The notes beneath the pieces were generated by a model, which worked only from the letters and a program-made list of their open reading frames with translations, was not told the DNA's origin and made no database searches. Both the position numbers and the translations under genes were made by a program. DNA of 64,000 nucleotides from Minisyncoccota bacterium (GTDB lineage: Bacteria; Patescibacteriota; Minisyncoccia; Phycocordibacterales; UBA918): the NCBI GenBank assembly GCA_017992505.1, contig JAGOON010000001.1, positions 2,532-66,531 of the forward strand, read 5' to 3'. Every line of letters begins with the position of its first letter. Position 1 is the first letter of the stretch. Of this stretch, positions 157 through 62,171 are shown in pieces.

Positions 157-184
157 AAATGAAACTTCTCCACTATCGTATATA

Positions 185-802
185 ATGTCATCTATGAAAA
201 AACAAACTGTTTTAGTCACAATTATGGTTTTACTGGTTGGAGTAATTGGCGGATATACCCTGAGCAAGACTGGGTTATATGGCTCTATCGTGGACAGATA
301 CAATAAAGACAATTCTCATAGCCAACCACCGAAAGAAACGTTTTCATCTGAGATGCACGGGATACATGACGCGGAAGTGCTGAGTGAGAAAAAGTTTATC
401 GAGGGAATGATTCCTCACCACAAGGAAGCCGTTGATACCGCTAACGAAGTCCTTGCCCGTGGAGAAAATGTCGAAGTACGAAAGCTCGCTGAAGCTATCG
501 TGACAGCGCAAGAAAAAGAAATCTCTAACATGAAGACGTGGTATACAGACTGGTATGGGGAAAGTTACATCGCAAAGAGCGACTATGTACCGATGATGCC
601 AGACCTTTCTACGCTCTCTGGAAAGGAACTTGATCGAGCGTTTCTGGAAGGAATGATAGAACACCATATGGGAGCACTGATGATGGCACAGCAAGTTTCA
701 AGAAGTGTCGAGCATCCAGAGATTACCGCACTCATACAAGCCATAGCGGAAACCCAATCCGCAGAAATTATAAACATGCGAATTCTTTTGAAGCAGGTGT
801 AA
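185..802 (+). CDS. DUF305-family protein (metal-resistance associated). N-terminal TM/signal. Probable real start is the ATG at 194, 7 nt after TATAAT
   Basis: Two DUF305 repeats with HH motifs (GMIPHHKEAV; GMIEHHMGALMMAQ). TATAAT at 181-186 overlaps the first ATG. Confidence 0.7.
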   Translation: MSSMKKQTVLVTIMVLLVGVIGGYTLSKTGLYGSIVDRYNKDNSHSQPPKETFSSEMHGIHDAEVLSEKKFIEGMIPHHKEAVDTANEVLARGENVEVRKLAEAIVTAQEKEISNMKTWYTDWYGESYIAKSDYVPMMPDLSTLSGKELDRAFLEGMIEHHMGALMMAQQVSRSVEHPEITALIQAIAETQSAEIINMRILLKQV

Positions 803-7327: not shown

Positions 7328-7393
7328 GAGCTAGTTTGGTGACCAACCACAATCTAATGTGGAGAGGATTGTAGCGGGTCACCAAACTAGCTC
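7328..7393. promoter_or_regulatory. 17-bp perfect inverted repeat bracketing a TACAAT hexamer immediately upstream of mraZ (candidate operator of the dcw promoter)
   Basis: GAGCTAGTTTGGTGACC at 7328-7344 and its exact reverse complement at 7377-7393, with a 32-nt spacer. The spacer contains TACAAT (minus-strand sense, 7368-7373). Confidence 0.5.
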
Positions 7394-9798: not shown

Positions 9799-10020
9799 AC
9801 GTAATGCTTATCCTAGCGTATACATAACAAAAAAGAAAGGTTCCTTCTGCAGCTCGCTGCCGCCAGATTCAGGTCTAGGAATGGACCTGAATCGTGGCGA
9901 AGCGCCTGCATAAATTCGCAATAGTCGGCTACGCCTCGTTTGCTCATTCAAAAGAAAAGGCCAGAGCTAATGCACTAACCTTTTCTTCTTACCCTGATAC
10001 TTAAAATTGAGAAAGATGTT

Positions 10021-14566: not shown

Positions 14567-14581
14567 GTGGCGGTAATTGTA

Positions 14582-17497: not shown

Positions 17498-17550
17498 ATC
17501 TATCTAAACGTTTTATGTATGTGCCAGTGTAGCACTTTTTTATGCCTATT

Positions 17551-18173: not shown

Positions 18174-18179
18174 ATTGTA
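18174..18179 (-). promoter_or_regulatory. -10 hexamer TACAAT 5 nt upstream of the holB-like ATG (leaderless-type promoter). TTGACA lies 11 nt further upstream
   Basis: Minus strand reads TTGACAcatataccagaTACAATccataATG. Confidence 0.45.
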
Positions 18180-19762: not shown

Positions 19763-19830
19763 ATAGAGTTCATGATAGCATTTTTTAAAAAATGAAAAAC
19801 AAAAAAGTTATGAACAGGCTGTGTATTACA

Positions 19831-21357: not shown

Positions 21358-24188
21358 ATCATATCAGGCATTGCCGAGATTGGTGGCGGTGGCGGTGGAA
21401 CGGGCTTTTGGTACCGTACACGTATTTCCTCTTCGATTTCGGCTCGTGCTCGCCCATAGCGAGCGTAACTTTGTTCAATCAACATTGCTACTCGTTCTGG
21501 ATTTGATGCTTGTGGCGGTAATGTTGAGAGACTAAATGGCGGTGTTGGCGTACCGTTGGCCAAAATGCGCATGTACGCACTGCGATTTGGAACATTCATA
21601 AGATCGCTTGCACTAAAGGTTGGTGCGTATTGTTGCTCCAAGAACTGCGCATCCTCAGGGCCCACCCTGAAAGCTGCAAGTGAGCCGACATTCCCGAAAA
21701 CTGCGTCTTTTATGTCTGGTTGAAGCTGAGCGATAAATTGGTGCGCCATAGTGAGTCCAAGTTTGTATTTACGAGCTTCTGAAAGAATCGCCGAGATAGA
21801 ATCCGTAGAAATATTCTGAAATTCGTCCATATGAAGGTAGAATGGTGGATATTTTTTGAGGGGGTCATCAACGCGCGAAAGCGCAGCCATGAGGAGTTTC
21901 CCTACAAAAATCATACCGATAAGATTGGCATTAATTTCACCAATACGACCTTTGGCAAGATTTACCAGCAAAATCTTTCGCTCATCCATAAGAAGGCGGA
22001 AATTGAAAGCGCTACGCTGCTGTCCGATAATTGGTCGCATATAGTCATTTGCGGTGAAGACGTCAAATTTTGAAACGATGTATGGCACGATGTTTTCGAG
22101 CGCAGCTTCCCCACCTGCCTTTGTTGCAATCTCTCGCCAGAACTGGACGACGACTGGGTTCGTTGCTTTTTCGAGTTTCTGTCGTCGATAGCGAGCATCG
22201 ACCATTACTCTTGAAATATCCATGAGTGTATTCCCACTTTCTGGATCTTCCATTACAAGCATAGTGGCATTGCGGAAATACTGCTCAAACATTGGACCCA
22301 TAGATTCTGGATTGCCACCGTAGAGCTTTTTAAAAATAGAAAAGAGTTCGTTGACCACAAACGTCTTTTGTTCTGGCTTTGAGTAATCAAACTCGAGCAT
22401 ATTGAGGCCAATGACTCGATCAAGACGAGCGGGATCAAAATAGATGACGTCCTGCTCTCGGTGTGGCGGAACGGCAGCGAGGACATCTTCGATGTCTGTG
22501 CCATGCGGATCAATCATACACACACCGTCACCACGCATAATATCTTGAACAATCATGTTCTTCATGAGTGTTGTCTTACCTGTCCCTGTCTGACCAATGA
22601 TATAAAAATGACGCAGACGGTCTTCAGCGGTGATGAAGATTTTTCTTTCCGTACCACGGTGAGCATTAATGCCAAGAACAGTACCTTCGATAGGCATAGT
22701 GGTGGGCGCTGGAGCTGTTTGTGCGTATGACTGCTTAAACTGAGGGGCCGCAGCGCCAGAAGCAGCATTTTGAGGGAAATGCACCAATGTCGCTAACTCT
22801 CGAATTGAGAGTGGCACAATCCCTTTCACAGATAACTCACGAAATGAAAATGCTCGAAGCGCCCGCTTCTGCGCCAGACCAGTGAGACGATTGAACACAA
22901 AGGCATTTCCATCAACTGAATTAAAAGCTAAAAATGTCGATTCTATTTCTGACATTATCTGTTTAGCCCGCACATCTGTCTTTGCCGAGACCACCATACG
23001 GATGTTTGTTTCAACAATATCGGTAGTGATTTTCTTGCGGAAGAGTTCGATGGAACGTGTGTCAATTTCTTTTGGTGGTACCTGCACCTCTTCCTTTTTC
23101 TTATTGGTGAAAAAGAGGTCAGTGACAGTATTTTTAAATTCACCAATCATTGAACTCCGTGCAATTGCGTCCGCTGGTTTCGTGCCTTTTTCAACTTCTT
23201 TAATGATAGATTCGTATGTACTGCGATACTTGTCATGTGGGTACCGCACAATAAACTGAAGCGCCGCTCCTCCACCTTCACGTTCGATTTTTGAGAAGGC
23301 GTTTAAAATAACTGAGAATGGGTCAGCAGTGAATTCATCATGTGGTTTCAAAGGATAGATGGGGTGCTTTCTGAGACTTACTTCAGAAACGAGTGCCACT
23401 CCACCATCGGCAAAAATATTATAATCATGCGGTTGAATTGTCAGTACTGCGTGTGGAAAGAGTGAGAGTGTCTGCTTTTCAAAAAGCGTCGCAAATTCAT
23501 TTGGCACTGCAACGTAGTACACGATATCGTCACTATTATCAGCAACCGCTACCTCGATGACGAAGTGATTCCCCGCTTGAACTGAACCAATCGTTCGAAG
23601 ACCCGCCAACAGTTGCTCCATAACGCCGACCAGTTGCGCAAGTTGTTGTGCATTTCCATCTGGAGTACTTTGTGACGGAAGTATCACTTCAAAGAGCGTC
23701 ATATGAAGGATGTGCCATGGTGGCAAGCCTTCGCGCAAATCCGCTATCTGTGCACCAGAGCGAATTTGTTCAATAAGTTGACGATGTACTTCGTCGACAA
23801 TGTAGGTGTTATTTGTTTGTTCGAGTACAGTGAGAGCATTTTTGATTCCCTTCTCGTATGCCAACTGCATAATATCCTCAACAGGATTATGTGACACTAC
23901 CACCGCTTCAACGGAACGATTGAGTTCGTCACCACTAAGTTCATAGTTTTTATCGAGCACCATTTTGGGGGTAAAGCTCATGTAGTTTTTTATCTCCTGT
24001 TTACCAAGCGTTTCGATGTCGGTGCGGTCAATGGAGGGCGTACGATCCAGCATCTGACGCTCCCGCTGTGCGATACGCGCACGCAAAAACTCAAGCTCTT
24101 CTTGAGGAGAGGAAAACTGCCTTGGCACACCTTCAATCATGCGTTCATTGTACACGCAAAAGGCGCGCCAAAGGCGCGCCTTAACCAC
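21354..24188 (-). CDS. Soluble TraG/TraD/VirD4-family (TraG-D_C-like) P-loop ATPase with a ~480-aa N-terminal domain of unknown function. Alternative start Met17 at 24140
   Basis: Walker A GQTGTGKTT and Walker B LHMDEFQN, then RKYKLGLTMAHQFIAQLQ...GNVGSLAAFRVGPEDAQ matching the VirD4/TraD C-terminal signature. No N-terminal TM helices. Poly-Pro C-terminus. Confidence 0.55.
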   Translation of the reverse strand: MVKARLWRAFCVYNERMIEGVPRQFSSPQEELEFLRARIAQRERQMLDRTPSIDRTDIETLGKQEIKNYMSFTPKMVLDKNYELSGDELNRSVEAVVVSHNPVEDIMQLAYEKGIKNALTVLEQTNNTYIVDEVHRQLIEQIRSGAQIADLREGLPPWHILHMTLFEVILPSQSTPDGNAQQLAQLVGVMEQLLAGLRTIGSVQAGNHFVIEVAVADNSDDIVYYVAVPNEFATLFEKQTLSLFPHAVLTIQPHDYNIFADGGVALVSEVSLRKHPIYPLKPHDEFTADPFSVILNAFSKIEREGGGAALQFIVRYPHDKYRSTYESIIKEVEKGTKPADAIARSSMIGEFKNTVTDLFFTNKKKEEVQVPPKEIDTRSIELFRKKITTDIVETNIRMVVSAKTDVRAKQIMSEIESTFLAFNSVDGNAFVFNRLTGLAQKRALRAFSFRELSVKGIVPLSIRELATLVHFPQNAASGAAAPQFKQSYAQTAPAPTTMPIEGTVLGINAHRGTERKIFITAEDRLRHFYIIGQTGTGKTTLMKNMIVQDIMRGDGVCMIDPHGTDIEDVLAAVPPHREQDVIYFDPARLDRVIGLNMLEFDYSKPEQKTFVVNELFSIFKKLYGGNPESMGPMFEQYFRNATMLVMEDPESGNTLMDISRVMVDARYRRQKLEKATNPVVVQFWREIATKAGGEAALENIVPYIVSKFDVFTANDYMRPIIGQQRSAFNFRLLMDERKILLVNLAKGRIGEINANLIGMIFVGKLLMAALSRVDDPLKKYPPFYLHMDEFQNISTDSISAILSEARKYKLGLTMAHQFIAQLQPDIKDAVFGNVGSLAAFRVGPEDAQFLEQQYAPTFSASDLMNVPNRSAYMRILANGTPTPPFSLSTLPPQASNPERVAMLIEQSYARYGRARAEIEEEIRVRYQKPVPPPPPPISAMPDMI
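24147..24152 (-). promoter_or_regulatory. -10 hexamer TACAAT 6 nt upstream of the Met17 ATG of the ATPase gene
   Basis: Minus strand reads GGCGCGCCttttgcgtgTACAATgaacgcATG. Confidence 0.4.
24160..24182. promoter_or_regulatory. Perfect GC palindrome GGCGCGCC-AAA-GGCGCGCC (candidate operator) abutting the ATPase-module promoter
   Basis: AAGGCGCGCCAAAGGCGCGCCTT. Each half is itself palindromic. It is located in the -35 region of the putative promoter. Confidence 0.45.
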
Positions 24189-24274: not shown

Positions 24275-25309
24275 TTATTTTTTGCTCAAGACTGCTCGTT
24301 TGTATACATCTAGGTGTTCGAGCGCCGTCCCGGTTCCTTTTACTACACAAAAGAGTGCTTGGTCGGCCACAACCGCCTTCACCCCCAAACGTCGGCGAAT
24401 GAGCTCTGGAAAATTACGGAGCTGAGACGTACCACCAGTCATGATAATACCCCCATCGATAATGTCTGCAGCAAGCTCTGGTGGAGTCTCTTGAAAAACA
24501 TCTCGTATTGCCTTTATCATTTCCTTCAATTCTTTTCCAATCGCACGTACAACTTCATTACTCTTGATTTCGGTTGTACGAGGCAAACCAGAAATCATGT
24601 CCCTTCCTTTAATTTCCATCACCAACTCTTCTTCAAGTGGAAGTGCTGAACCAACTTTAATTTTTATATCCTCAGCCGTCTTTTCACCAATCGCGAGATT
24701 TCGAGTCTTCTTCACATAGTCCACAATCGACATATCGATACGGTTGCCCGCGCACTTAACTGAGTTCGAGGCTACGATACCCCCAAGCGAAATTACTGCC
24801 ACATCGATAGTACCGCCACCGATATCAACAATCATATGTCCTTGCGCTTCATATATAGGTACACCTGCACCAATAGCAGCGAGAATTGGTTCTTTCACCA
24901 CAAACGCATTCTTGGCGCCCGCCCGCATGGCAGCTTCTACTACCGCCCGACGCTCAGTTGAAGTCACGCCCGCTGGCACCGACACCATCACATCTGGCCT
25001 AAAGAGGCTGTACTTACTCATGGATTTTTTGAGGAAGTATCGAAGCATCGCTTCAGTAACGCGATAATCAGCAATGACGCCGTCACGCATTGGACGATAG
25101 GCTCGAATACTATCGGGAGTACGTCCAATCATTTGCTTGGCTTCGGTTCCAACAGCAAGCACCTCGTTGTCCTCAGAAATAGCAACAACTGACGGCTCAT
25201 TAAGTACAATTCCTTGTCCTGGAATAAACACCAAAATACTGGTAGTACCAAGGTCGATGCCGATTTTAGGAGTTAAGCTACCAAACATGTTAGGCACATA
25301 TACTACCAC
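24275..25309 (-). CDS. Second MreB-family actin homologue (Mbl/MreBH-like paralogue)
   Basis: IGIDLGTTSILVFIPGQGIVLNEPSVVAI and VDIGGGTIDVAVISLGG. Length 344 aa. A distinct paralogue from the mreB at 13493-14566. Confidence 0.8.
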   Translation of the reverse strand: MVVYVPNMFGSLTPKIGIDLGTTSILVFIPGQGIVLNEPSVVAISEDNEVLAVGTEAKQMIGRTPDSIRAYRPMRDGVIADYRVTEAMLRYFLKKSMSKYSLFRPDVMVSVPAGVTSTERRAVVEAAMRAGAKNAFVVKEPILAAIGAGVPIYEAQGHMIVDIGGGTIDVAVISLGGIVASNSVKCAGNRIDMSIVDYVKKTRNLAIGEKTAEDIKIKVGSALPLEEELVMEIKGRDMISGLPRTTEIKSNEVVRAIGKELKEMIKAIRDVFQETPPELAADIIDGGIIMTGGTSQLRNFPELIRRRLGVKAVVADQALFCVVKGTGTALEHLDVYKRAVLSKK

Positions 25310-25339: not shown

Positions 25340-25357
25340 TATAGCATATCTGCTATA
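25340..25357. promoter_or_regulatory. Inverted repeat TATAGCA-tatc-TGCTATA upstream of the HTH-MurA gene (candidate autoregulatory operator overlapping a -10-like TATACT)
   Basis: 7-bp perfect arms sitting 12 nt upstream of the murA ATG. Confidence 0.4.
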
Positions 25358-25368
25358 CTCACCTTTGT

Positions 25369-27244: not shown

Positions 27245-27250
27245 TATAAT
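27245..27250 (+). promoter_or_regulatory. TATAAT -10 box 7 nt upstream of the priA-like ATG (27258)
   Basis: ggttttttgcTATAATgccacccATG. Confidence 0.5.
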
Positions 27251-29195: not shown

Positions 29196-29207
29196 TATAT
29201 TAAGCGC

Positions 29208-35160: not shown

Positions 35161-35235
35161 ACCCTATCGTAGGCTGTAGAGGGCTAATATGCAAAGGGGG
35201 CCAGTGCTTAAAGTGGTATGATGTAATAACAAACG

Positions 35236-36012: not shown

Positions 36013-36564
36013 ATGATATACTGTCTACTCATGAAAAAATCATACGTTTGTTCGGCTTTTCTTCTTCTGTTCGCGAGTATCAGCATCACCAGCGAAGCTC
36101 ACGCCGGAACAGCAAGCACGATCCCTAAAGCCGTATATTCTCCGATCGAAGTAGAAAAAAAAGTTCGTGAATATTTTAAAGACACACCACAAATGATTGA
36201 AATCGCGCGCTGTGAATCGAAATTTCGCCAATTTACTGATGCTGGAAATGTCCTCCGTGGCGGGAGTGGTGGTGGCATGATTGGAGTATTTCAATTTTAT
36301 GAATCCATTCACGCACCAGCCGCCCAAACCCTTGGATTTGATCTCGCTACTCTTGAAGGCAACCTCGGCTACGCCAAACATGTACACAAAACACAAGGCA
36401 CAGCCCCTTGGAATTCGGCTAAGTATTGTTGGGATGTTCCCTTCATCTCACAAACCGCCACGGTGGCTGTAAGCACAGAGCGTGAAAGACTCCTTAAACA
36501 AATTGAGACCCTCACAAAACTCATCACACTCCTACAAAAGCAACTCAATACTAAGTCATCTTAA
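36013..36564 (+). CDS. Secreted transglycosylase-like (Rpf-like) domain protein
   Basis: Signal peptide, then IARCESKFRQF...GGSGGGMIGVFQF matching the transglycosylase-like CES...G...G(L/V)FQ core. C-terminal coiled coil. Confidence 0.55.
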   Translation: MIYCLLMKKSYVCSAFLLLFASISITSEAHAGTASTIPKAVYSPIEVEKKVREYFKDTPQMIEIARCESKFRQFTDAGNVLRGGSGGGMIGVFQFYESIHAPAAQTLGFDLATLEGNLGYAKHVHKTQGTAPWNSAKYCWDVPFISQTATVAVSTERERLLKQIETLTKLITLLQKQLNTKSS

Positions 36565-38648: not shown

Positions 38649-38700
38649 GTACTAAGCGTATCACACAAAAACACCTCGCCTAGCGAGATGTTTGTTACTT

Positions 38701-39279: not shown

Positions 39280-39320
39280 AACCTTTTTTAAATTTTATAA
39301 CTACATTGTTATGCAATTAC

Positions 39321-39394: not shown

Positions 39395-39691
39395 ATGCAG
39401 ATGAAAGGTACGAAGACCACCTGCCCTATCACCAAAGTGGCGACCCTCCTCTCGGACACTTGGACGATGCTTATTATGCATGCGCTCACTGAGGGTCCGA
39501 AGCGTTTTTGCGAACTTGAAAACACACTTAGTGGTATCTCAACCCGCACTCTCACACTTAAGCTACAAAAACTAACTGCCGAAAATCTTATAGAAAAACA
39601 TAACAACCTGTACCGGGCAACAAAAAAAGGAGCTGGTCTCAAGATTATCGAAAAAGCCATGCGGAAGTATAGCGAGCAGTACTTAGACTAA
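39395..39691 (+). CDS. HxlR-family (MarR-like winged-helix) transcriptional regulator. The ORF track start 39179 is unlikely
   Basis: CPITKVATLLSDTWTMLIMHALTEGPKRFCELENTLSGISTRTLTLKLQKL is a full HxlR domain. Typical divergent partner of NAD(P)H oxidoreductases. Confidence 0.75.
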   Translation: MQMKGTKTTCPITKVATLLSDTWTMLIMHALTEGPKRFCELENTLSGISTRTLTLKLQKLTAENLIEKHNNLYRATKKGAGLKIIEKAMRKYSEQYLD

Positions 39692-40559: not shown

Positions 40560-40580
40560 AATAGATATATAATAACGCTT

Positions 40581-41243
40581 ATGGAAATCAAACTCGAAGC
40601 AACATGGAAAAACGCTCTCCAAGCAGAATTTGAAAAGCCATATTTTCACAAACTTACCGAAAAAGTCCGAGCCGCCTACCTTACTGGTGGTGTCTATCCC
40701 CCGCCAAAGTTTGTCTTTAACGCCCTTAGTCTCTGCCCATTTAAAAATGTTCGAGTCGTCATCCTCGGACAAGACCCGTACCATGGCGACGGACAAGCGC
40801 ACGGACTTTCCTTTTCAGTTCCTGAAGGAGTACGAATTCCGCCTTCACTACAAAATATCTACAAAGAAATTGCGAGTGATCTAAATAAGCCAATTCCGCT
40901 TTCAGGTAACCTCGAACATTGGGCAACCCAGGGTGTCCTCCTTCTCAATGCCACACTCACTGTAGAGAGTAGCAAACCTGCCTCTCACCAAGGTTGGGGT
41001 TGGGAAATATTCACCGATGCGATTATTGAAACTATTTCCAAAAACAAGGAGCATGTGGTCTTTCTTCTCTGGGGAAACTACGCTCGTGCCAAAAGATCAC
41101 TTATCGATGGCACAAAGCATTTAATACTCGAGGCACCGCATCCCTCTCCCTTTTCAGCACATACTGGTTTTTTGGGGTGTAAACATTTTAGTAAAACAAA
41201 TGATTATTTGGCAAAGCATGACCTCCCAATAATTGAGTGGTAG
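40581..41243 (+). CDS. ung: Uracil-DNA glycosylase (family 1)
   Basis: ILGQDPYHG water-activating motif and HPSPFSA. TATAAT lies 7 nt upstream of the ATG. Confidence 0.85.
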   Translation: MEIKLEATWKNALQAEFEKPYFHKLTEKVRAAYLTGGVYPPPKFVFNALSLCPFKNVRVVILGQDPYHGDGQAHGLSFSVPEGVRIPPSLQNIYKEIASDLNKPIPLSGNLEHWATQGVLLLNATLTVESSKPASHQGWGWEIFTDAIIETISKNKEHVVFLLWGNYARAKRSLIDGTKHLILEAPHPSPFSAHTGFLGCKHFSKTNDYLAKHDLPIIEW

Positions 41244-41253
41244 ACTTTCCACT

Positions 41254-45458: not shown

Positions 45459-45611
45459 TGCAAACATATGAAATTTGTCATACTTGCACTCGGTGCTGTG
45501 ATTCTTCTCATGATGGTAAACGCTCATCTGGGAGGGAGTCCGATTTAAAAAAGAGCCAGCCTTTGGGCTAGCTCTTTTCTTTTCTACAACTTACCGTAGT
45601 ATGCTTTCATT

Positions 45612-46655: not shown

Positions 46656-46684
46656 TTGACCTTTCTGGTGCACTCTGGTACAAT
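46656..46684 (+). promoter_or_regulatory. Sigma-70-type promoter TTGACC-17-TACAAT, 10 nt upstream of the rpmG ATG
   Basis: TTGACCtttctggtgcactctggTACAATcgcggtcactATG. Confidence 0.6.
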
Positions 46685-46694
46685 CGCGGTCACT

Positions 46695-46874: not shown

Positions 46875-46876
46875 GA

Positions 46877-47907: not shown

Positions 47908-48029
47908 ACTGAGATTAGTATAACAAAGCACGACGCCTTCGCCCTAATTTTTAAGAACACATCAGTGGACTATAAAAATGGAAGTACCCCTGGGGTGGCA
48001 GTCGTGCTTTTTAAAAAATGTAGATAACA

Positions 48030-48797: not shown

Positions 48798-48798
48798 A

Positions 48799-49533
48799 CT
48801 ATTTCTTTAACAATTCCAAATAACGCTCCTCGACCGATCTTCCACCTTCCATAAACTCTTCTTTACTCCCATGCCAGATAATATTGCCATGATTGATGAC
48901 TGCAATTTCGTTACAGAGTTGCTGAATTTCTTCGAGGTAGTGTGAGGTCAAGATGATTGTTTTACCTTGTTCATTCATTTCCTTAAGATACTCCCAAAGC
49001 GAATGCCTCTGCTCAACATCAACACCGGCGGTTGGCTCATCAAGAATAAGGAGTTCTGGTGTATGAATAAGTGCGCGAGCTAACATTGCACGACGCTTGA
49101 GTCCACCTGAGAGTTTTTGGAATTTTACCTTTCGGTGTTCTTGTAAATCAAAACGCTTAATGAGCTCGTTGGTTCGTATCTTTCTTTCTTCCGCTTCAAT
49201 ACCATAGTAACCACCCATGTAGTCAATGAGTTTTTCGACTGGCGCGAAAAAATCGAGATTGAATTCCTGTGGTGAAAGGCCGACTTTGGTGCGTGCAATT
49301 TTGTAATCCTTTACAACATCAATGCCGTCAATAAGAATCTCTCCACTCGTTGGTTGAGCAATTCCAGTAATACAGTGAATCGTGGTACTTTTGCCGGCAC
49401 CATTTGGACCAAGAAGTCCAAAGAAAGCACCTTTTTGTACCGTCAGTGAGATACCATCAACCGCAACTTTTTGTTCCTTTCCTGAATCGTACTTCTTTAT
49501 AAGATTTTTAATTTCTAACATTGGTGTAGACAT
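48799..49533 (-). CDS. ABC transporter ATP-binding protein
   Basis: Walker A GLLGPNGAGKSTT, signature LSGGLKRR, Walker B LLILDEPT. Confidence 0.85.
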   Translation of the reverse strand: MSTPMLEIKNLIKKYDSGKEQKVAVDGISLTVQKGAFFGLLGPNGAGKSTTIHCITGIAQPTSGEILIDGIDVVKDYKIARTKVGLSPQEFNLDFFAPVEKLIDYMGGYYGIEAEERKIRTNELIKRFDLQEHRKVKFQKLSGGLKRRAMLARALIHTPELLILDEPTAGVDVEQRHSLWEYLKEMNEQGKTIILTSHYLEEIQQLCNEIAVINHGNIIWHGSKEEFMEGGRSVEERYLELLKK

Positions 49534-49645
49534 AGCGACAAGTATAGCAAAAATTAAGTAATGCTCCCCACTTCATACATTTATAAAGAAGAAGAATTTC
49601 AATTATAAATATTGACATTCTAAATAATGAGAGCATAGTAATTTC

Positions 49646-50383
49646 ATGCCAAAAGAAGAGACCTGGCTTTTGAAGGAAAAATATCACGGCGAAAAGAGCG
49701 ACGCTTTTTTCGCTGATTGTAAGCGTCTTGCGCTTGGCGAACCGCTCGGGTACCTCATCGGGTATGTCCCCTTCCTCGACTGTAAAATCTGGCTTGATTC
49801 TCATCCGCTCATCCCACGCCCTGAAACTGAATTTTGGGTAGAGAAAGCCATTACTCAAATTGGCGCCGAAGCAACAAAATCACTCCGAATACTCGACCTT
49901 TGCGCTGGCTCGGGCTGTATAGGCGTTTCAGTCGCAAAAGCCATCTCAACATCAATCGTCGATTTCTCAGAAATTGACCTCTCACACCTCCCCACTATCA
50001 AAAAAAATATTACTGAAAATGATATTGCTCAGGAGCGCACAAGCATCTATCACACCAATCTATTTGATGGAATTGAGCGAACATATGACTATATATTGAG
50101 TAATCCTCCGTACATAGATTTAACACTCGGTCAGACTGACGAGAGTGTTCTTAAATACGAACCTTACGTCGCTCTCTCAGGTGGCCTCGCTGGACTTGAA
50201 GTAATTGAAGACATTATTAAGCGGGCGCCACTTTTTCTTAACCCACACGGTCAACTCTGGCTCGAACATGATCCCGAACAAACTAAAGCTATCAATGCTC
50301 TGGCTTCAGAAAGTGGTTTTTCTGTTACTACCCACAATGACCAATACGGGGTCAGCCGCTACACAATCCTGATGCTACAATAA
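49646..50383 (+). CDS. prmC: Release factor glutamine N5-methyltransferase PrmC (HemK)
   Basis: ILSNPPYI (NPPY) motif and DLCAGSGCIG SAM-binding motif. Confidence 0.8.
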   Translation: MPKEETWLLKEKYHGEKSDAFFADCKRLALGEPLGYLIGYVPFLDCKIWLDSHPLIPRPETEFWVEKAITQIGAEATKSLRILDLCAGSGCIGVSVAKAISTSIVDFSEIDLSHLPTIKKNITENDIAQERTSIYHTNLFDGIERTYDYILSNPPYIDLTLGQTDESVLKYEPYVALSGGLAGLEVIEDIIKRAPLFLNPHGQLWLEHDPEQTKAINALASESGFSVTTHNDQYGVSRYTILMLQ

Positions 50384-50387
50384 TTAC

Positions 50388-50633
50388 ATGGATTCAACAC
50401 CTACCGTCGCGCTTCCAGACATTTCATATCTCCCCGTAATTCCAGGAGTTGACTTGGTAATGCTATTTTTTTATCTCGTGCTAGGTTTCTATGCAATATT
50501 CACTGGTATCTTCTATTACCACTGGAGCGCCTACTCAAGTGACGTAAAGGTCTCACTTGCGACATATGTCGCCTACGCAGCCATTACCATTCCACTCATG
50601 CTTGTGATGATTGGAAGTCTCTTCGCTATCTAA
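50388..50633 (+). CDS. Small 2-TM membrane protein
   Basis: 81 aa, two hydrophobic helices. Co-oriented with the following bPH_2 gene. Confidence 0.35.
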   Translation: MDSTPTVALPDISYLPVIPGVDLVMLFFYLVLGFYAIFTGIFYYHWSAYSSDVKVSLATYVAYAAITIPLMLVMIGSLFAI

Positions 50634-50637
50634 TTAT

Positions 50638-51225
50638 ATGTTGTTCGAAAAACTAGACTTGGAAGCTGACGAAGAGGTACTACGTATCGTCCGTAAACAC
50701 TGGTTTATTATTGTGAGTGAACTCATTGGTGTAGCCGTCTTTGCACTCACACCAATTATTCTTCTTTTTATTGGTCTTGAACTTCCAAAAATCCTTGGCG
50801 GGTTTGACGTTCATGCTGAACGATTTACCGCGTATATCACTTTTGTAATCGCTACCTGGTTGCTACTTTCTGTACTTAGTGGATTTGTCGTCTGGACACA
50901 CTATTACCTCGACCTTTGGATCATCACTGACCGTCGCATTATCGCGGTTGAACAAGTCCACTTCTTCAACCGTAGCGTAGCTATCTTTCGTCTTGAACGA
51001 TTACAAGACATCGAATTTTCAGTAAAAGGCCTCCTGCAAACATTTTTTAACTTCGGTACGCTCAGTGCTCAGACTGCTGGTCACAACGAGGCGAATTTTA
51101 AATCCACTGGAATGCCAAGTCCCGACGAACTTCAAGCGATTATTCAAAAGGCAATGGATGCTCGTTTGGGCGAACTTAACAACCGACCAAATCTCTCCGC
51201 AGCTATTGAATCTTCTGGCGAATAA
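50638..51225 (+). CDS. Bacterial PH-domain (bPH_2/YdbS-YdbT-like) membrane protein. The ORF begins at 50611
   Basis: Two TM helices, then a YdbS-like PH domain (DLWIITDRRIIAVEQ...). Confidence 0.5.
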   Translation: MLFEKLDLEADEEVLRIVRKHWFIIVSELIGVAVFALTPIILLFIGLELPKILGGFDVHAERFTAYITFVIATWLLLSVLSGFVVWTHYYLDLWIITDRRIIAVEQVHFFNRSVAIFRLERLQDIEFSVKGLLQTFFNFGTLSAQTAGHNEANFKSTGMPSPDELQAIIQKAMDARLGELNNRPNLSAAIESSGE

Positions 51226-51252
51226 TCAGATGCCCATAAGCTTTTTGAACAT

Positions 51253-51281
51253 TTGATTTAAGCTCATTTCTCCCCTACAAT
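51253..51281 (+). promoter_or_regulatory. Promoter TTGATT-17-TACAAT, 6 nt upstream of the hisS ATG (leaderless-type)
   Basis: TTGATTtaagctcatttctccccTACAATctccctATG. Confidence 0.55.
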
Positions 51282-51287
51282 CTCCCT

Positions 51288-52613
51288 ATGAGCAACAAAC
51301 ACCTCCCGACCGACTCCTATAAAGGTGTCCGTGATTTTTACCCAGAAGATATGGCGATTCAGCGCTATATTTTTGATACTTGGGCTAAGACTGCTGAGAA
51401 GTTTGGTTTTGAACGCTACGATGCTTCTATTCTTGAGCCTGCCGACCTGTACAAGGCCAAAGGGGCTGAAAACGCGGAACTGGTGAACGAGCAGACTTAT
51501 ACCTTCACTGACCGTGGTGAACGTGAAGTGACACTCCGTCCTGAAATGACCCCGACGGTTGCACGTATGGTGGCAGCCAAACACCGTGAACTTTCGTTTC
51601 CGCTTCGCTGGTACTCAATTCCAAACCTTTTTCGCTACGAAAACACACAGAAAGGGCGACTTCGTGAGCACTGGCAACTTAACTGTGATATCTTTGGCGC
51701 AACTGACTACACGGCTGATATTGAGATTATTGCGCTCGCATATCAGACACTAATTGATTTTGGAGCAACGCCAGATATGTTTGAGATTCAAATCAATGAT
51801 CGAAAACTCATGAATCGTCTTTACACCGCACTTGGAGTAAAGGAAGCAATGATTCCAGCCATCACCCGCCTTAACGATCGTCGCGAAAAAATCGACCCCC
51901 AAGCATATAGAACTGAACTAAAAGAAATTGTTGGTGGTGACGGCCTCATGGTAGAAAAAATCATCATGATGCTCGATAATAGTGACGAACAAACAGACGT
52001 TGTCGTTGGTCTTGCAGAACTTGGTATATCAAATGTTGTCTTCAATAAAAGTCTGGCTCGCGGTTTCGATTATTACACTGGAACTATTTTTGAAATTAAA
52101 GACACTTCTGGTGAAAATAAGCGTTCTCTACTTGGTGGTGGTCGCTATGACAATCTTACCTCTCTCTTTACTGACGAAATCGTTTCTGGAATTGGCTTTG
52201 GAATGGGTGACGTAACAATGCGAGATTTCTTAAAAACTCACAGTCTTCTTAATACAAGATATAAACTTTTTAAAAACTATATTGACTTAGTCATTATACC
52301 CGCAGAAAAAGAATATAACCTGTGTTCACAAAAAATCGCTCAAGAATTCAGAAGTAATGGAATCAATTGTTATGTTGATATCTCAAGTAAAAAACAAAAC
52401 AAGAAAGAGCAGGCAGCCATAAAACTAAGTGAATCTATTAATTCTTTTTTCTCTGACAAGAAAGTGGCTTCTTTTATCGTCGTCGACAAAACAACTTCAA
52501 AAACAAAGAAGTTTATCGTAGGAGGAAAGAAGCTATCTATTAGTTCACTTTCAAAGAAAATAAGTAAAAATAGAAAGGACTCTCAAAAATATCTTAATTT
52601 TCTGAACAAATAG
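51288..52613 (+). CDS. hisS: Histidyl-tRNA synthetase with a Lys-rich C-terminal extension
   Basis: Class II motifs (YKGVRDFYPED; RYDNLTSLF...GFGMGD), HisRS-specific HisA/HisB regions and an anticodon-binding domain. Confidence 0.85.
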   Translation: MSNKHLPTDSYKGVRDFYPEDMAIQRYIFDTWAKTAEKFGFERYDASILEPADLYKAKGAENAELVNEQTYTFTDRGEREVTLRPEMTPTVARMVAAKHRELSFPLRWYSIPNLFRYENTQKGRLREHWQLNCDIFGATDYTADIEIIALAYQTLIDFGATPDMFEIQINDRKLMNRLYTALGVKEAMIPAITRLNDRREKIDPQAYRTELKEIVGGDGLMVEKIIMMLDNSDEQTDVVVGLAELGISNVVFNKSLARGFDYYTGTIFEIKDTSGENKRSLLGGGRYDNLTSLFTDEIVSGIGFGMGDVTMRDFLKTHSLLNTRYKLFKNYIDLVIIPAEKEYNLCSQKIAQEFRSNGINCYVDISSKKQNKKEQAAIKLSESINSFFSDKKVASFIVVDKTTSKTKKFIVGGKKLSISSLSKKISKNRKDSQKYLNFLNK

Positions 52614-52641
52614 CAACTTTGTATATTGGCACTATAGCCAT

Positions 52642-52649
52642 GCTACAAT
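52642..52649 (+). promoter_or_regulatory. Extended -10 (TGcTACAAT) 10 nt upstream of the exonuclease ATG
   Basis: catgcTACAATctccccacttATG. Confidence 0.4.
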
Positions 52650-52659
52650 CTCCCCACTT

Positions 52660-53235
52660 ATGCGATACGTTGTCTTTGACCTCGAAACCCAAAATATCTT
52701 TCAGGAAGTAGGTTCAAGTGACCCGACCGATCTCGATATTTCGGTTGCCTCTGCGTACGATAGTGCGTCTGATACCTATACTACAGTCACTCATGATGAG
52801 ATACACAAACTTTGGCCAATCATTGAAAAGGCTGACGCTCTGGTAGGATATAACAGCAATCACTTTGATATTCCCCTTTTAAATAAATACTACCCCGGTG
52901 ATTTAACCACTATTAAAAGTATCGACTTGCTTGAAGATATCAAGAATGCGCTTGGTCGTAGATTACGGCTCGACAGTGTGGCGCAAGCAACCATCGGTGC
53001 AAAAAAATCAGCAGACGGTCTGCAAGCTGTTCGCTGGTGGCGCGAAGGAAAGATTAAGGAAATTATGAAATATTGCGAACAGGACGTAAAAGTCACAAAG
53101 CAGGTGTTTGAGTACGCGCGAAAGAATGGTCATATAAAATTTAAAGACGGTGCTCGCAATCGTGAACTTGTACTTAACACTACTCACTGGGAAGAGCTAG
53201 ACGACGAAGCTGCAATGACGCACTCGATGTTCTAA
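52660..53235 (+). CDS. DEDDy-type 3'-5' exonuclease (DnaQ/RNase D-like)
   Basis: Exo I FDLET, Exo II NSNHFDIPLL, Exo III YCEQDV. Confidence 0.6.
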   Translation: MRYVVFDLETQNIFQEVGSSDPTDLDISVASAYDSASDTYTTVTHDEIHKLWPIIEKADALVGYNSNHFDIPLLNKYYPGDLTTIKSIDLLEDIKNALGRRLRLDSVAQATIGAKKSADGLQAVRWWREGKIKEIMKYCEQDVKVTKQVFEYARKNGHIKFKDGARNRELVLNTTHWEELDDEAAMTHSMF

Positions 53236-54041
53236 GAAATAAGGGACACATACCCAACAAGCGCTGAGAGAATCACGCTGTACCAAATAAATGGCCATAG
53301 TGTGTAACGACGGATGAAGGCCAAGAAAAAGTGAATCACAATAAAGGCAGTCACCGCAGCGACGCCAGCACCAATCAGAATCACTCCCCAGTCAACACTT
53401 CCACCGTTTTGTAATAAGTCGATGGATTTTTTACATCCGACACCAAGCGTGATTGGGATCGCGAGAAGAAATGAGAATCTCGACGCTTCATAGCGCGACA
53501 TTCCAAGCATCATACCACCTGCAATAGTTGCACCCGAACGTGAGAATCCAGGGAGCAACGCAAGCGCCTGAAAAAGCCCCACTAAAAATCCTCGCTTAGC
53601 CGTGACAGTCCCGTGAGTTGGACGTAAATAGTATCGCCACTCAACATACATAAAAAAGACAGAGGCCATAAAGAGCATAAGCGCCACAAGTCCAGTTGAT
53701 TGGGTATTTTTATCAAAGAATGGTTCAAGAGCGACCCCAAGTATGACAGCGGGTACCGTACCGATAGCAAGAGCATAAAAGAGCGTCAAGTCTTTTTGAT
53801 TAACAGGAAGCCTACCAAGCTTTCGAAGCATTGCTTGTATCAGTACCCACAAATCATTTCGGAAATAGACAATGACTGCGAGCGTAGTCGAAAGATGCAG
53901 GACTGCATCATACGCAAGCGCGTTTGTGGCATCTATTGAAAGGAGATCACGAACCAAAATGAGGTGTCCCGAAGATGAAATGGGAAGAAATTCTGTTATC
54001 CCTTGTACCAGACCAAGCACTACCGAATCGAATATGTCCAT
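53232..54041 (-). CDS. uppP: Undecaprenyl-diphosphate phosphatase UppP (BacA). The ORF extends to 54092
   Basis: GITEFLPISSSGHLIL and PGFSRSGATI motifs. 8 TM. Confidence 0.85.
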   Translation of the reverse strand: MDIFDSVVLGLVQGITEFLPISSSGHLILVRDLLSIDATNALAYDAVLHLSTTLAVIVYFRNDLWVLIQAMLRKLGRLPVNQKDLTLFYALAIGTVPAVILGVALEPFFDKNTQSTGLVALMLFMASVFFMYVEWRYYLRPTHGTVTAKRGFLVGLFQALALLPGFSRSGATIAGGMMLGMSRYEASRFSFLLAIPITLGVGCKKSIDLLQNGGSVDWGVILIGAGVAAVTAFIVIHFFLAFIRRYTLWPFIWYSVILSALVGYVSLIS

Positions 54042-54114
54042 ATATCTGAGTATAGCATGAGAGCAATATGCTATACTTTTTCTGTTACACACAGTAATTT
54101 ACTCAGCATATTTT

Positions 54115-54879
54115 ATGGAACCCTCATCCTCAAATCAGAGTCATCCAGCTATTCCTCTCGCGATTATTATTGGTTTCGCGATGATTGCCATAGCAATCTT
54201 TTTTACTAGTGGCGGCTCAAAATCAAAACTCACTGCAGAAGATATCGCAACAACAACCCCAAATATGACGGGGATTCCGCGCCCAATAGATGCGAGTGAC
54301 TACATCAAAGGTAATCCAAATGCACCAATTCTAATTGTTGAATACTCTGATTATGACTGTCCGTACTGTAAGCAGTATCACACTACACTCAAGCAAATCA
54401 TGGATGAATATGCGATTAACGGTCGTGTCGCGTGGGTCTACCGACAATTCCCAATTCAGCAACTCCACCCAAACTCACCAAAAATCTCTGAGGCAGCGCT
54501 CTGTGCAGGGTCTCTTGGTGGTAACGACGCGTTTTGGAAATTCACTGATTTAGTGTTTGAAGAGCGAGAGATTGACGAACCAACCAACTCTATCAAACTT
54601 CCCGAGTACGCAGAAAAAGCTGGTGTAAATCGTTCGGAGTTTGAGGCCTGTGTCTCTAGTGGAAAAATGGAAGAACAAGTACGCAATAGTGTAGAAGATG
54701 CCTTCGATATCGGTGCGCGTGGTACCCCATATACAGTGATTATGGTTGGTAGTGAACAAGCCGTCATAAATGGCGCCCAGTCTTACGAAACAGTAAAAGG
54801 AATTCTCGACAACCTTATAGGCCAACTCGACGGAACACTCAATACCGCCCCCCCTGCACAAGGAGTCCCAGTACAATAA
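54115..54879 (+). CDS. DsbA-family thiol:disulfide oxidoreductase, membrane anchored
   Basis: N-terminal TM. CPYC active site in a thioredoxin fold (YSDYDCPYCKQYH). Confidence 0.7.
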   Translation: MEPSSSNQSHPAIPLAIIIGFAMIAIAIFFTSGGSKSKLTAEDIATTTPNMTGIPRPIDASDYIKGNPNAPILIVEYSDYDCPYCKQYHTTLKQIMDEYAINGRVAWVYRQFPIQQLHPNSPKISEAALCAGSLGGNDAFWKFTDLVFEEREIDEPTNSIKLPEYAEKAGVNRSEFEACVSSGKMEEQVRNSVEDAFDIGARGTPYTVIMVGSEQAVINGAQSYETVKGILDNLIGQLDGTLNTAPPAQGVPVQ

Positions 54880-57902: not shown

Positions 57903-58021
57903 ACCTGCCTAGTATACCAAATCCGACACAAAACCCTGTATAAACAAGCTTGCAAAGGGCCTACAGCAGGCGTATATTTTGGGCCGACCTCTGCGCGAGG
58001 TTCTATTAAATAATAATCTTT

Positions 58022-60735: not shown

Positions 60736-62136
60736 TTAGTAAGATTTCAGTCTGCGAGCCTTATCGTGTTGTCGGATTTTTTCCAAGGCTTTTGCTTCAA
60801 TCTGACGGATACGTTCGCGGGTCACGCCAAATTCCTTTCCTACCTCTTCAAGTGTGTGGTATGTACCATCTAGAAGTCCGTGACGCATCTCAAGAATCTT
60901 ACGTTCCTTCTCAGACAAGGTGTCGAGAATTTCCATAATTTGATCCGTGAGAATACTGTGTGCAACTTCTTGGTCTGGTGAAATAATCTTGTCGTCTGAG
61001 ATAAAGTCAGAGAGTCGTGAACGATCGTCATCGTCTCCAACGGGAAGTTCAAGTGAGATGGTGTCCTGGGAAATCTTTTCGATTTGATAAATCTTTTCAA
61101 CTTCAACATTCATTTCAGTAGCGATTTCTTCTGGCATCGGATCGCGACCGAGGTCTTGCGCGAGACGTCGAGAAACCTGCTTATACTTTGCCATCGTTTC
61201 TACCATGTGTACTGGAATACGAATCGTTCGTGACTGATCAGCAAGTGCGCGGGTAATCGCTTGGCGAATCCACCACGTTGCGTAGGTAGAAAACTTAAAA
61301 CCTTTGGTGAAGTCGAATTTATCAACCGCTTTGAAAAGACCCAGGTTCCCTTCTTGAATGAGGTCAAGGAGTGTCAAATCTGGTGAACGTCCGACGTACT
61401 TCTTGGCGATTGAAACCACAAGACGCAGGTTGGCGCGAGCGAGGAGGTTACGAGCCTCTTCATCACCATCGACGATACGTTTAGCGAGCACACGCTCTTC
61501 GTGAGCGTTAAGAAGTGGGTACTGGCCAATTTCGCGGAGATACATCTGAATTGAGTCGTAGCTTGAATCGCTTCGCTTGAACGCATTCTTTTGTGCGAGA
61601 ATGGCATCACTTGGATCATCGCCGAGCATACCGCCTGAGGCGAGCACATCAATACCCGCGATAGTAAATCGTTCATAGAGCACATCGAGGAATTCGACAT
61701 CCTTTTCAATTTCTGGGAATGAACGGAGGAGCTCGTCATGTGTGACGTACCCACGAGTCTTTCCCATTTGCATCAAATCAGCCGCCTTAGCTTCAAGTAG
61801 TTTTTCACTTCGAGTAAGCGCACGTGGTGGGGCTACTTTTTTTGGAACCTCCTTCTTTGGTACGACTGTTTTTTTGGCAACTGGTTTTACTACTTTTTTA
61901 GCGACAATTTTCTTCGAGACTTTTTTAGGTACAGCTTTTACCGCTTTTTTAGGAGCGGTCTTTTTTGGTGCAGCTTTTTTAACTAGCTTCTTTGCTGGCG
62001 TCTTTTTGGCGACAGCTTTTTTAGCAACGGCTTTTTTGGCTACTGGAGCCTTCTTCACGGTTGCTTTTTTTATTGGTTTAACGGCTTTTTTTACCGCTTT
62101 TTTGACAACTTTTTTTGTGGCCTTTTTGGTTGCCAT
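60736..62136 (-). CDS. rpoD: RNA polymerase sigma-70 factor RpoD with a Lys/Ala/Val/Pro-rich histone-H1-like N-terminal tail
   Basis: Regions 1.2 to 4 are present ([11 protein letters not shown]; [14 protein letters not shown]; region 4 [20 protein letters not shown]). The N-terminal ~100 aa are KKAVKK-type repeats. Confidence 0.85.
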
Positions 62137-62171
62137 AATGCCCCCAACTATACAGAAAAACCTTAAAAAGT

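Follow-up and report, generated by a model that had tools for sequence, protein, structure and literature searches.

In the window, a 64,000-nt stretch of DNA from an uncultured, ultrasmall bacterium of Patescibacteria/Paceibacteria lineage, hexamers resembling bacterial -10 elements stand directly in front of many start codons, and transcription of many genes probably starts at the start codon itself. From the sequence features described below, it appears likely that these hexamers are RpoD -10 elements set so that mRNAs start at or near the ATG and are translated in a leaderless manner. A large share of leaderless mRNAs had been proposed in a preliminary description of this DNA, and the proposal is supported by a sharp edge at a 6-nt gap between hexamer and ATG, sigma-70 features, conservation at hisS, the rarity of boxes before tightly following genes and the low frequency of Shine-Dalgarno (SD) sequences. 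The actual 5' ends and the mechanism of translation are inferred.

Position of the boxes relative to start codons

Boxes were counted in front of the 66 public gene calls on the window DNA with a -10 PWM trained on genomes other than that of the window. At 4.5 bits or more, a box was found 5–13 nt 5' of the ATG in 26/66 genes as compared with 4–6/66 in each control bin of equal width (p=6e-10). When starts were set by a first-ATG rule blind to the motif, 25/60 ORFs had the looser motif TANNNT ending 6–12 nt ahead of the ATG, vs 17% for the upstream controls (Fisher p=9e-5). With non-coding upstream controls only, the enrichment was 12/31 in the window (p=0.016) and 99/237 vs 19% in the window and relatives together (p=6e-13). 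Internal ATGs had a box of at least 6 bits in 4 of 360 cases (first-ATG starts). When the search was started from the motif, 12 of the 58 TATAAT/TACAAT sites on both strands led to the ATG of an ORF of at least 70 aa within 3–14 nt, and other distance bins held 0–6. A generic -35/-10 consensus scan of positions 40001–60000 (20 kb) yielded no excess (34 sites vs 36.3 expected), being too loose to reveal anything through numbers, but the promoters of hisS and rpmG were nonetheless flagged by it. The -10 signal is positional and not one of abundance. An excess of TANNNT at gap 0 was considered as a promoter signal and rejected, as it is explained by a preference for T at -1 and upstream TAA stops 3 nt off.

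All 11 hexamers quoted in the preliminary description were found in the window, at one site each, although two of them, mutM and the register for def, are weak as written, and at least 15 further genes have the pattern. The word widespread used there holds for about 40% of genes and about half of those not tightly following another gene, but not for all genes. The proposed distance of 4–10 nt needs to be corrected to 5/6–13 nt, and 6 nt is a hard lower limit. Genes with a box close to the start are listed below (gap, nt between box and start codon; hisS is given in the next section).

DUF305 gene: TATAAT at 181..186, + strand, gap 7, start 194; public call of 202 aa
class I lysS: TAGGAT (weaker) at 9810..9815, - strand, gap 11, start 9798; Pfam match with residue 2 at profile position 2
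mreB-1: TACAAT at 14576..14581, - strand, gap 9, -35 TTGCCC at 17 nt, start 14566
holB-like gene: TACAAT at 18174..18179, - strand, gap 5 (the edge of the allowed range), start 18168
477-aa hypothetical gene: TGcTATCAT at 19772..19777, - strand, gap 9, start 19762
DUF87/HerA-like ATPase, 928 aa: TACAAT at 24147..24152, - strand, gap 6, start 24140; public call of 928 aa
mreB-2: TGgTAGTAT at 25300..25305, - strand, gap 11, start 25288; Pfam residue 8 at profile position 3
HTH-MurA gene: TGcTATACT at 25354..25359, + strand, gap 9, start 25369; divergent from mreB-2
priA-like gene: TGcTATAAT at 27245..27250, + strand, gap 7, start 27258; public call of 630 aa
def: TGcTATATT (corrected register) at 29196..29201, + strand, gap 6, start 29208; Pfam residue 2 at profile position 2
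CAP-domain gene: TGgTATGAT at 35217..35222, + strand, gap 13, start 35236; predicted leader about 6 nt
177-aa hypothetical gene: TGaTATACT at 36017..36022, + strand, gap 8, start 36031; public call of 177 aa
VTT/DedA gene: TGaTACGCT at 38655..38660, - strand, gap 6, start 38648
FMN reductase gene: TAAAAT at 39292..39297, - strand, gap 12, start 39279
mutM: TAGACT (weak, 1.8 bits) at 39684..39689, + strand, gap 6, start 39696; overlaps the hxlR stop codon
ung: TATAAT at 40568..40573, + strand, gap 7, start 40581
190-aa hypothetical gene (the 41254 gene): TGgTAGACT at 41241..41246, + strand, gap 7, start 41254; public call of 190 aa
truB: TATGCT at 45600..45605, + strand, gap 6, start 45612
rpmG (L33 of 59 aa): TTGACC, 17 nt and TGgTACAAT at 46656..46684, + strand, gap 10, start 46695
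class I aldolase gene: TGtTATACT at 47917..47922, - strand, gap 9, start 47907; Pfam residue 7 at profile position 2
ABC ATPase gene: TGcTATACT at 49541..49546, - strand, gap 7, start 49533
81-aa gene: TGcTACAAT at 50376..50381, + strand, gap 6, start 50388; putative promoter within the end of the upstream gene
DEDDy/RNase_H_2 exonuclease gene: TGcTACAAT at 52644..52649, + strand, gap 10, start 52660
uppP (BacA): TGcTATACT at 54049..54054, - strand, gap 7, start 54041; Pfam residue 7 at profile position 2
UvrD-PD-(D/E)XK helicase-nuclease gene: TGgTATACT at 57911..57916, - strand, gap 8, start 57902
rpoD: TATAGT (weaker) at 62147..62152, - strand, gap 10, start 62136

For rpmG, the -10 hexamer quoted earlier lies on the + strand at 46679. 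A box does precede def, but the hexamer originally given (TATTAA, 29198) is out of register, and TGcTATATT with its 6-nt gap fits better. At mutM, whose ATG follows the stop codon of hxlR at a distance of 4 nt, TAGACT scores only 1.8 bits and shares bases with that stop codon; a promoter role is therefore doubtful, and mutM may instead be translationally coupled. The uppP box forms one arm of a perfect 10-nt inverted repeat.

Genes were called tightly following if they lay on the same strand at -29 to +15 nt from the preceding gene. Only 3/20 of these had a box vs 23/46 of the others (p=0.012). The three are mreB-1, the 190-aa hypothetical gene and the 81-aa gene, and their boxes may be internal promoters or chance matches. 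The dcw genes after mraZ, with intergenic gaps of 3–15 nt, have no -10 box. Two genes with a more distant box serve as contrast.

frr: TGcTACACT at 17526..17531, - strand, 28 nt before the ATG; predicted to be leadered, the leader without SD
mraZ: TACAAT at 7368..7373, - strand, 53 nt before the ATG; predicted to be leadered

Probable promoter character of the boxes and choice of start codons

The promoter in front of hisS has the following parts.

-35 element TTGATT: 51253..51258, + strand, 17-nt spacer to the -10
-10 element TACAAT: 51276..51281, + strand, 6 nt before the ATG
hisS ATG: 51288..51290, + strand, predicted start of transcription (A as +1) and of translation

The span 51253–51290, singled out in the preliminary description, is thus exactly TTGATT, 17 nt, TACAAT, 6 nt and the hisS ATG. 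TACAAT was present in 58/77 hisS genes of relatives with a modal gap to the ATG of 6 nt, and TTGnnn at the exact 17-nt spacer in 58/73. These relatives share 49–73% amino acid identity, and the arrangement TTGnnn-17-TACAAT-(6–10)-ATG is kept in most of the 77 while the spacer sequences differ. The N-terminus of HisS, MSNKHLPTDSYKGVRDF, aligns with the relatives from residue 1, and the Pfam tRNA-synt_His match begins at residue 13.

Among 438 non-hisS genes of relatives, TGnTANNNT was found at 0–5 nt in 2, at 6–12 nt in 87 (at exactly 6 nt in 22) and at 20–40 nt in 69. The distribution is bimodal, with a start-proximal class and a separate leadered class at 20–40 nt, and the counts, about zero at a gap of 5 nt, reach their maximum at 6 nt. 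As transcription usually starts 7 bp downstream of the -10 (PMC12641261), a 6-nt gap would place the transcription start on the A of the ATG.

Features that had not been used in selecting the boxes (TGn, pyrimidine at -1 and -35 TTG) also point to sigma-70 promoters. The extended -10 element TGn was found in 16/26 window cases, with T in 57% and G in 50% at hexamer positions -3/-2. The commonest hexamers at gaps of 6–10 nt are TACAAT, TATAAT and TATACT. Position -1 is a pyrimidine in 24/26 window cases, and in window and relatives together only 6% have G there; A stands at +1. A -35 TTG at 16–18 nt is anticorrelated with TGn (17% where TGn is missing vs 4% with TGn, p=0.015). Outside hisS, a general -35 element was seen just as a weak enrichment of TTG at 17–18 nt, and most of these promoters are therefore taken to rely on the extended -10. 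The window itself encodes the sigma factor expected to read them.

rpoD, housekeeping sigma factor: 60736..62136, - strand; Pfam regions 1.1–4, motifs of regions 2.4, 3.0 and 4.2 present

These three motifs we take to be near-identical to those of E. coli.

The choice of start codons was also affected. Several starts in the ORF track had been suspected to be too long, and Pfam N-termini and public annotation likewise favoured the ATG next to the -10. The ORF track begins too far upstream in at least nine window genes, and the ATG beside the -10 was chosen for def, uppP, aldolase, rpmG, mreB-2, ATPase, priA-like, DUF305 and the 41254 gene. The start of MutM is fixed by MPELPEV as Pfam position 1 (match over Pfam positions 1–116), and Def, BacA, aldolase, LysRS and FMN reductase begin at profile position 2. 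Public annotation of identical contigs has the same starts as proposed; it is only partly independent, as the gene finder may model the -10 motif, whereas Pfam N-termini are independent. For CLC, the public start (31604) differs from the -10-adjacent ATG (31622). For annotation in this lineage, the right start would usually be the ATG 6–12 nt past TGnTAYAMT and not that of the longest ORF.

Proposed translation without Shine-Dalgarno sequences and competing explanations

SD sequences had been described as mostly absent, and this was confirmed by counting. GGAG, GAGG or AGGA at -18 to -4 was found at 6/66 starts (9%), whereas in-frame ATGs inside genes had it in 19% of cases; SD 5-mers were found at 3/66 starts. 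The same 4-mer script gave 46/65 (71%) on the E. coli control. Leadered genes of window and relatives had SD 4-mers in 7/66 cases. Among the relatives, five (L042, L053, L059, L075 and L078) do have SD motifs. SD frequency in the window is at or below chance, and 65/66 genes start with ATG. A TTG at 8130 preceded by AAGGAG was considered as a true SD-led start but is probably a chance occurrence, since the public start is the ATG at 8094 and SD 5-mers stand at only 3/66 starts. A 16S rRNA gene, sought for its anti-SD, was found neither in the window nor in 80+ loci nor in positions 1–3000 at the end of contig L090, where the gene-free 1.5 kb turned out to be an ORF running off the contig. An Rfam scan of the window gave tRNA-Asn only and no leader RNAs.

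According to the proposed mechanism, RNA polymerase would start on the A of the ATG or 1–6 nt before it. Most boxes would act as extended -10 elements of the type TGnTAYAMT with little -35, and boxes without TGn (hisS, mreB-1) would draw on TTGnnn at a 17-nt spacer. The mRNAs would be too short at the 5' end for a ribosome-binding site and would have to be translated in the leaderless manner, with the AUG at the 5' end bound by the ribosome and initiator tRNA. Gaps of 10–13 nt imply leaders of 3–6 nt and not strictly zero. About 26/66 window genes, half of the 46 not tightly following another, would be of this type. Tight followers, mostly without box and SD, are presumably translated by termination-reinitiation, and a second promoter class 20–55 nt upstream would give short A/U-rich leaders, again without SD. 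A broader reading is offered only tentatively, at slightly less than even chances: the Paceibacteria lineage might essentially lack SD/anti-SD pairing, with first genes leaderless or behind short, A/U-rich, unstructured leaders and downstream cistrons reinitiating.

Several other explanations were weighed. The promoters might be real but minor, with translation mostly from longer read-through or polycistronic transcripts and the start-proximal boxes as secondary or internal promoters. The genome is tightly packed, with few clear terminators between closely packed same-strand genes, and some boxes lie in or just after the same-strand upstream gene (81-aa gene, gap 4; 190-aa gene, 10; mreB-1, 15; ung, 21). 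We consider this improbable, as half of the non-tightly-following genes are boxed, including divergent ones beyond the reach of read-through, and the hisS promoter is conserved over deep divergence. Read-through mRNAs would also lack SD, so that SD-independent initiation would still be required. That the hexamer is instead an mRNA-level non-SD ribosome-binding or enhancer motif in leadered transcripts, as in Bacteroidetes-like group B, would agree with the absence of SD, the A/T-rich upstream regions and the nearness of group B motifs to starts (PMC6028130). This is very unlikely, given hallmarks that sigma-70 promoters show in DNA only (TGn, TTGnnn at 17 nt in 58/73 hisS genes, anticorrelation of TGn and -35), a distant class of TGnTANNNT at 20–40 nt, and the depletion of the box before operon-internal genes, whereas the group B motif precedes all genes.

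Start calling is hard in SD-less genomes, and the conflicting CLC starts (31604 vs 31622) illustrate that start codons could be mis-assigned, true starts lying downstream and ordinary leaders overlapping annotated coding sequence. Pfam profiles beginning at residues 1–8 in MutM, Def, BacA, aldolase, LysRS, MreB-2, FMN reductase and L33, as well as HisS N-termini aligned from residue 1 in relatives, make this highly improbable. Least probable of all is a chance origin of the pattern. TANNNT-like words are common in A/T-rich DNA beside the ATG: A/T just upstream of starts is 0.66–0.68 vs about 0.60, and loose TANNNT occupies 1.4% of all positions. However, with intergenic-only controls the excess was 2- to 3-fold for TANNNT and about 8-fold for TGnTANNNT, the reverse complement of the motif had no peak, counts step sharply between 5- and 6-nt gaps, and E. 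coli treated in the same way showed no such signal (0/57 for TGnTANNNT in a crude ORF pipeline). The chance explanation is refuted by these control tests. The reading of the boxes as RpoD promoters of leaderless mRNAs is preferred.

Relation to known systems

In Parcubacteria, the anti-SD motif was found in only 48%, SD helices were suggested not to form, and bS21 and uL1 were reported to be often missing (Tsurumaki et al. 2022, RNA 28:1041; PMC9297842). The window belongs to the same broad lineage, and its SD scarcity is the matching observation on the mRNA side; that study neither analysed the 5' regions of mRNAs nor put forward another route of initiation, and it is the mRNA side that is covered here. 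If true, SD-free reading would be the mRNA-side counterpart to the loss of anti-SD, bS21 and uL1 in part of Parcubacteria, and the organisms could serve as a natural model for SD-free initiation in bacteria. SD at chance level and the leaderless geometry together offer a concrete, testable answer to the question of how translation is initiated in Parcubacteria, whose ribosomes are reduced and often lack the anti-SD motif (PMC9297842). The predicted absence of a 5' UTR would exclude riboswitch, attenuator and T-box control for these genes, for example hisS, so that control would have to act at the promoter. The promoter consensus might be used for genetic tools in Patescibacteria. Full-text literature searches found no paper tying leaderless expression to Patescibacteria, CPR, Parcubacteria, Saccharibacteria or Nanosynbacter. 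Leaderless expression is a known mechanism that is poorly documented for this lineage and would be new in it.

Leaderless-rich genomes form group C of GeneMarkS-2, with Actinobacteria (M. tuberculosis) and Deinococcus-Thermus (D. deserti), and have a Pribnow box 6–8 nt from the starts of operon-first genes (M. tuberculosis) in about 25–50% of operons, with AUG at the 5' end of the mRNA (PMC6028130). The window resembles this group in the modal gap of 6–7 nt, in the share of boxed genes (26/66) and in a box that is localised near starts and largely absent before operon-internal genes. It differs in that its remaining genes are also without SD (9% of starts), whereas those of group C carry SD, in its heavy reliance on extended -10 TGn, and in its lineage, Patescibacteria/Paceibacteria with about 45% GC, which is not among the group C phyla named (PMC6028130).

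With Bacteroidetes group B, the window shares the largely unused SD and A/U-rich leaders. The group B motif is an RNA motif before all genes, whereas that of the window appears to act in DNA, as a promoter element, and is mostly missing before internal genes. A large leaderless fraction is also found in archaeal group D. Archaeal distal cistrons are translated by termination-reinitiation, the route suggested for the downstream genes of the window as well. Unlike in group D, where the promoter box lies about 26 nt upstream (PMC6028130), the window has a bacterial -10 element and a sigma-70 factor.

Hexamers upstream of start codons

The window has a GC content of about 45%. The nearest relatives of its HisS, with 49–73% amino acid identity, come from MAGs labelled Paceibacteria, Paceibacterota, Kaiserbacteria, Nomurabacteria or Patescibacteria, which places the organism in the Parcubacteria/Paceibacteria group of the CPR. 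Public calls for 66 genes were taken from the 100%-identical parts of JAHZTN010000456.1 (GCA_020047435.1, 69 kb) and JAGORD010000004.1 (GCA_018063005.1).

A preliminary description had quoted 11 strings with -10 hexamers 4–10 nt before ATG, and each was found once, at its named gene. Enrichment was measured in several ways, none of which picked starts by motif. For crude ORFs under a first-ATG rule, TANNNT ended 6–12 nt before the start in 25/60 versus 17% in five upstream control bins (p=9e-5), and the extended form TGnTANNNT did so in 10/60 versus 4/300 controls; the latter occurred at 0/57 ORFs of a 50-kb E. coli control run through this crude pipeline. The excess persisted when the count was limited to genes whose upstream DNA is non-coding for 70 nt or more: TANNNT preceded 12/31 such genes of the window (p=0.016), and 99/237 versus 19% when relatives were included (p=6e-13). 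Starting from the motif, 12 of 58 TATAAT/TACAAT sites had an ATG 3–14 nt downstream that begins an ORF of 70 aa or more, and other distance bins held 0–6. With a 10-column PWM for which other genomes alone served as the training set, 26/66 public gene calls scored at least 4.5 bits at 5–13 nt, versus 4–6/66 in control bins (p=6e-10); the same scripts gave 2/65 in the E. coli control with annotated starts. The boxes do lie near the ATG, but at 5/6–13 nt instead of 4–10 nt.

The distances were resolved in 438 non-hisS genes from 80 related genomes. TGnTANNNT occurred twice at gaps of 0–5 nt and 22, 18, 16 and 15 times at 6, 7, 8 and 9 nt, with 87 at 6–12 nt, almost none at 17–20 nt and a second class (n=69) at 20–40 nt. 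TA[CT]AAT rose from 0, 0 and 0 at 3–5 nt to 15 at 6 nt. Since transcription starts 7 bp downstream of the -10 element across bacteria (PMC12641261), a 6-nt gap sets +1 on the A of ATG, and shorter gaps would cut into the start codon.

The hisS promoter, on which the preliminary description was centred (51253–51290), reads TTGATT, 17 nt, TACAAT, 6 nt, ATG. Among 77 relatives, 73 carry TANNNT 6–18 nt before the first in-frame ATG of hisS, 58 of these as exact TACAAT, with gaps of 6 nt in 22 genomes, 7 in 9, 8 in 7, 9 in 12 and 10 in 9. TTGnnn stands at a spacer of exactly 17 nt in 58 relatives, and the spacer sequences themselves vary. Because this geometry is fixed relative to the start codon across deep divergence, it is strong evidence for a functional promoter.

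Promoter identity and start codons

Four features, none of them selected for, identify the motif from the sequence as a sigma-70 promoter element and speak against a signal in RNA or an effect of base composition: the TGn, its trade-off with the -35 element, the pyrimidine at -1 and the hard-edged distances. In hexamer-aligned sequences, positions -3/-2 are T in 57% and G in 50%, as in an extended -10, and TGn is present in 16/26 window cases. A -35 TTG at a 16–18 nt spacer is commoner where TGn is absent (17% versus 4%, p=0.015), which is the classical trade-off between -35 and extended -10. A pyrimidine directly precedes ATG in 58/66 window genes and 24/26 box-bearing ones, and G holds this position in only 6% of window and related genes; with +1 on the A of ATG, this would agree with the Y(-1)R(+1) preference of start sites. 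The housekeeping sigma factor RpoD, with region 2.4, 3.0 and 4.2 motifs, is encoded at 60736–62136 (-).

Where this can be judged from protein profiles, the -10-adjacent ATGs are real starts. The Pfam profile match starts at position 1 for MutM (N-terminus MPELPEV), at position 2 for Def, BacA, aldolase, LysRS and FMN reductase, and at position 3 for MreB-2 and L33. ATG accounts for 65/66 starts. Public annotation also chooses the -10-adjacent ATG, which makes the 'longest ORF' start too long in at least nine cases, as had been proposed for several genes. Other details were modified: the def box adjoins its start, but TGcTATATT at a 6-nt gap is a better fit than the quoted register; TAGACT of mutM is present but weak and shares bases with the hxlR stop codon; and the holB hexamer is present, but its 5-nt gap is marginal.

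Boxes are rare before same-strand genes within 15 nt of the preceding gene (3/20 versus 23/46 others, p=0.012). The dcw cluster mraZ-rsmH-ftsL-PBP-mur, with gaps of 3–15 nt, has a promoter before mraZ only (TACAAT, 53 nt upstream). Besides the genes with a start-proximal box, about 11 have a strong -10 farther off, 14–55 nt upstream, among them frr, mraZ, dsbA-like, fur and a glutaredoxin-like gene; these are taken to be leadered.

Inverted repeats and neighbouring loci

The following features were observed at or near these promoters and genes.
1231–1287: intergenic region of the divergent fur-family gene (FUR, 876–1232 (-)) and ZIP transporter gene (1244–2113 (+)), almost all palindromes, ATATGCAA/TTGCATAT at 1231–1251 and AATGCAAAT/ATTTGCATT at 1269–1287
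7328–7393: 27-nt inverted repeat upstream of mraZ, 89% complementary, 12-nt loop, with the mraZ TACAAT (7368–7373 (-)) within one arm
13493–14566 (-) and 24275–25288 (-): a pair of full-length MreB paralogues, each behind a leaderless-type promoter; mreC, an mreD-like gene and PBP2 come after the first
21354–24140 (-): 928-aa protein with ResIII-like and DUF87/HerA/TrwB-like ATPase signatures, and DUF8128 in the public record
24153–24185: GC-rich hairpin GGCGCGCCtttGGCGCGCC, directly adjoining the -10 of the 928-aa ATPase gene on its upstream side
25369–26868 (+): single 499-aa ORF, also one gene in public annotation, in which an HTH_3 (XRE-type) DNA-binding domain at the N-terminus is fused to a complete EPSP_synthase/MurA-type domain
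54049–54077: perfect 10-nt inverted repeat AGTATAGCAT/ATGCTATACT, each arm a TGcTATACT extended -10, one per strand, also marked as a hairpin by the terminator scan
60736–62136 (-): RpoD, whose N-terminal ~100 residues form a Lys/Ala/Pro/Val-rich, histone-H1-like tail preceding region 1.1

The fur/ZIP palindromes probably act as a Fur/Zur operator that overlaps the promoters of both genes; for the mraZ repeat, an operator and a read-through hairpin are both conceivable. The repeat at 54049–54077 would represent back-to-back promoters, serving leaderless uppP leftward and the leadered dsbA-like gene rightward.

Shine-Dalgarno usage and known systems

The reported scarcity of SD sequences was borne out: GGAG/GAGG/AGGA lies at -18 to -4 of 6/66 starts and an SD 5-mer at 3/66, versus 19% at internal in-frame ATGs and 46/65 starts in the E. 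coli control. Leadered genes of the window and relatives have A/U-rich leaders, with SD in only 7/66. A minority of more distant relatives carry a textbook SD 6–10 nt before ATG (AAAGGAG, GGGAGG, AAGGAG, GGAGGG and GGAGGAG at loci L042, L053, L059, L075 and L078), and SD usage is thus heterogeneous within the group. Two sets of related loci, each presumably the same orthologous genes, have TGnTATAAT or TATACT promoters followed by leaders that are A/U-rich, free of SD and conserved, '...TATTAATCAA...' in L011, L012, L018, L032, L033 and L073 and '...ATTAAGAAT...' in L004, L005, L019 and L036; this conservation points to a possible non-SD element for regulation or ribosome recruitment.

Motif position, promoter features, conservation and SD scarcity thus indirectly support the leaderless-type transcription and translation proposed earlier. 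With the geometry given by the sequence, the likely 5' ends and ribosomal pathway would be as follows: TGnTAYAMT would be bound by RpoD holoenzyme, with or without a -35 element, transcription would begin with ATP, either on the A of ATG itself or a few nt before it, the resulting 5'-AUG mRNA would be translated without SD pairing, and downstream cistrons would be reached by reinitiation after nearby stop codons.

Leaderless expression is a known mechanism, and full-text searches found no report linking it to Patescibacteria, CPR, Parcubacteria, Saccharibacteria or Nanosynbacter. Only 48% of Parcubacteria are reported to have a detectable anti-SD motif, and bS21 is frequently absent from the group (PMC9297842); the SD scarcity of the window matches this report, seen here from the mRNA side only. 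The significance would rise if initiation proved to be free of SD here and a connection with the loss of the anti-SD were confirmed. The window motif is not an RNA motif of the Bacteroidetes type. The likeness is to GeneMarkS-2 'group C' (Actinobacteria, Deinococcus-Thermus), in which the Pribnow box lies 6–8 nt from starts and 25–50% of operons are leaderless (PMC6028130): the window genes would work in the same way, but they belong to another lineage, and the remaining genes do not use SD as those of group C do.
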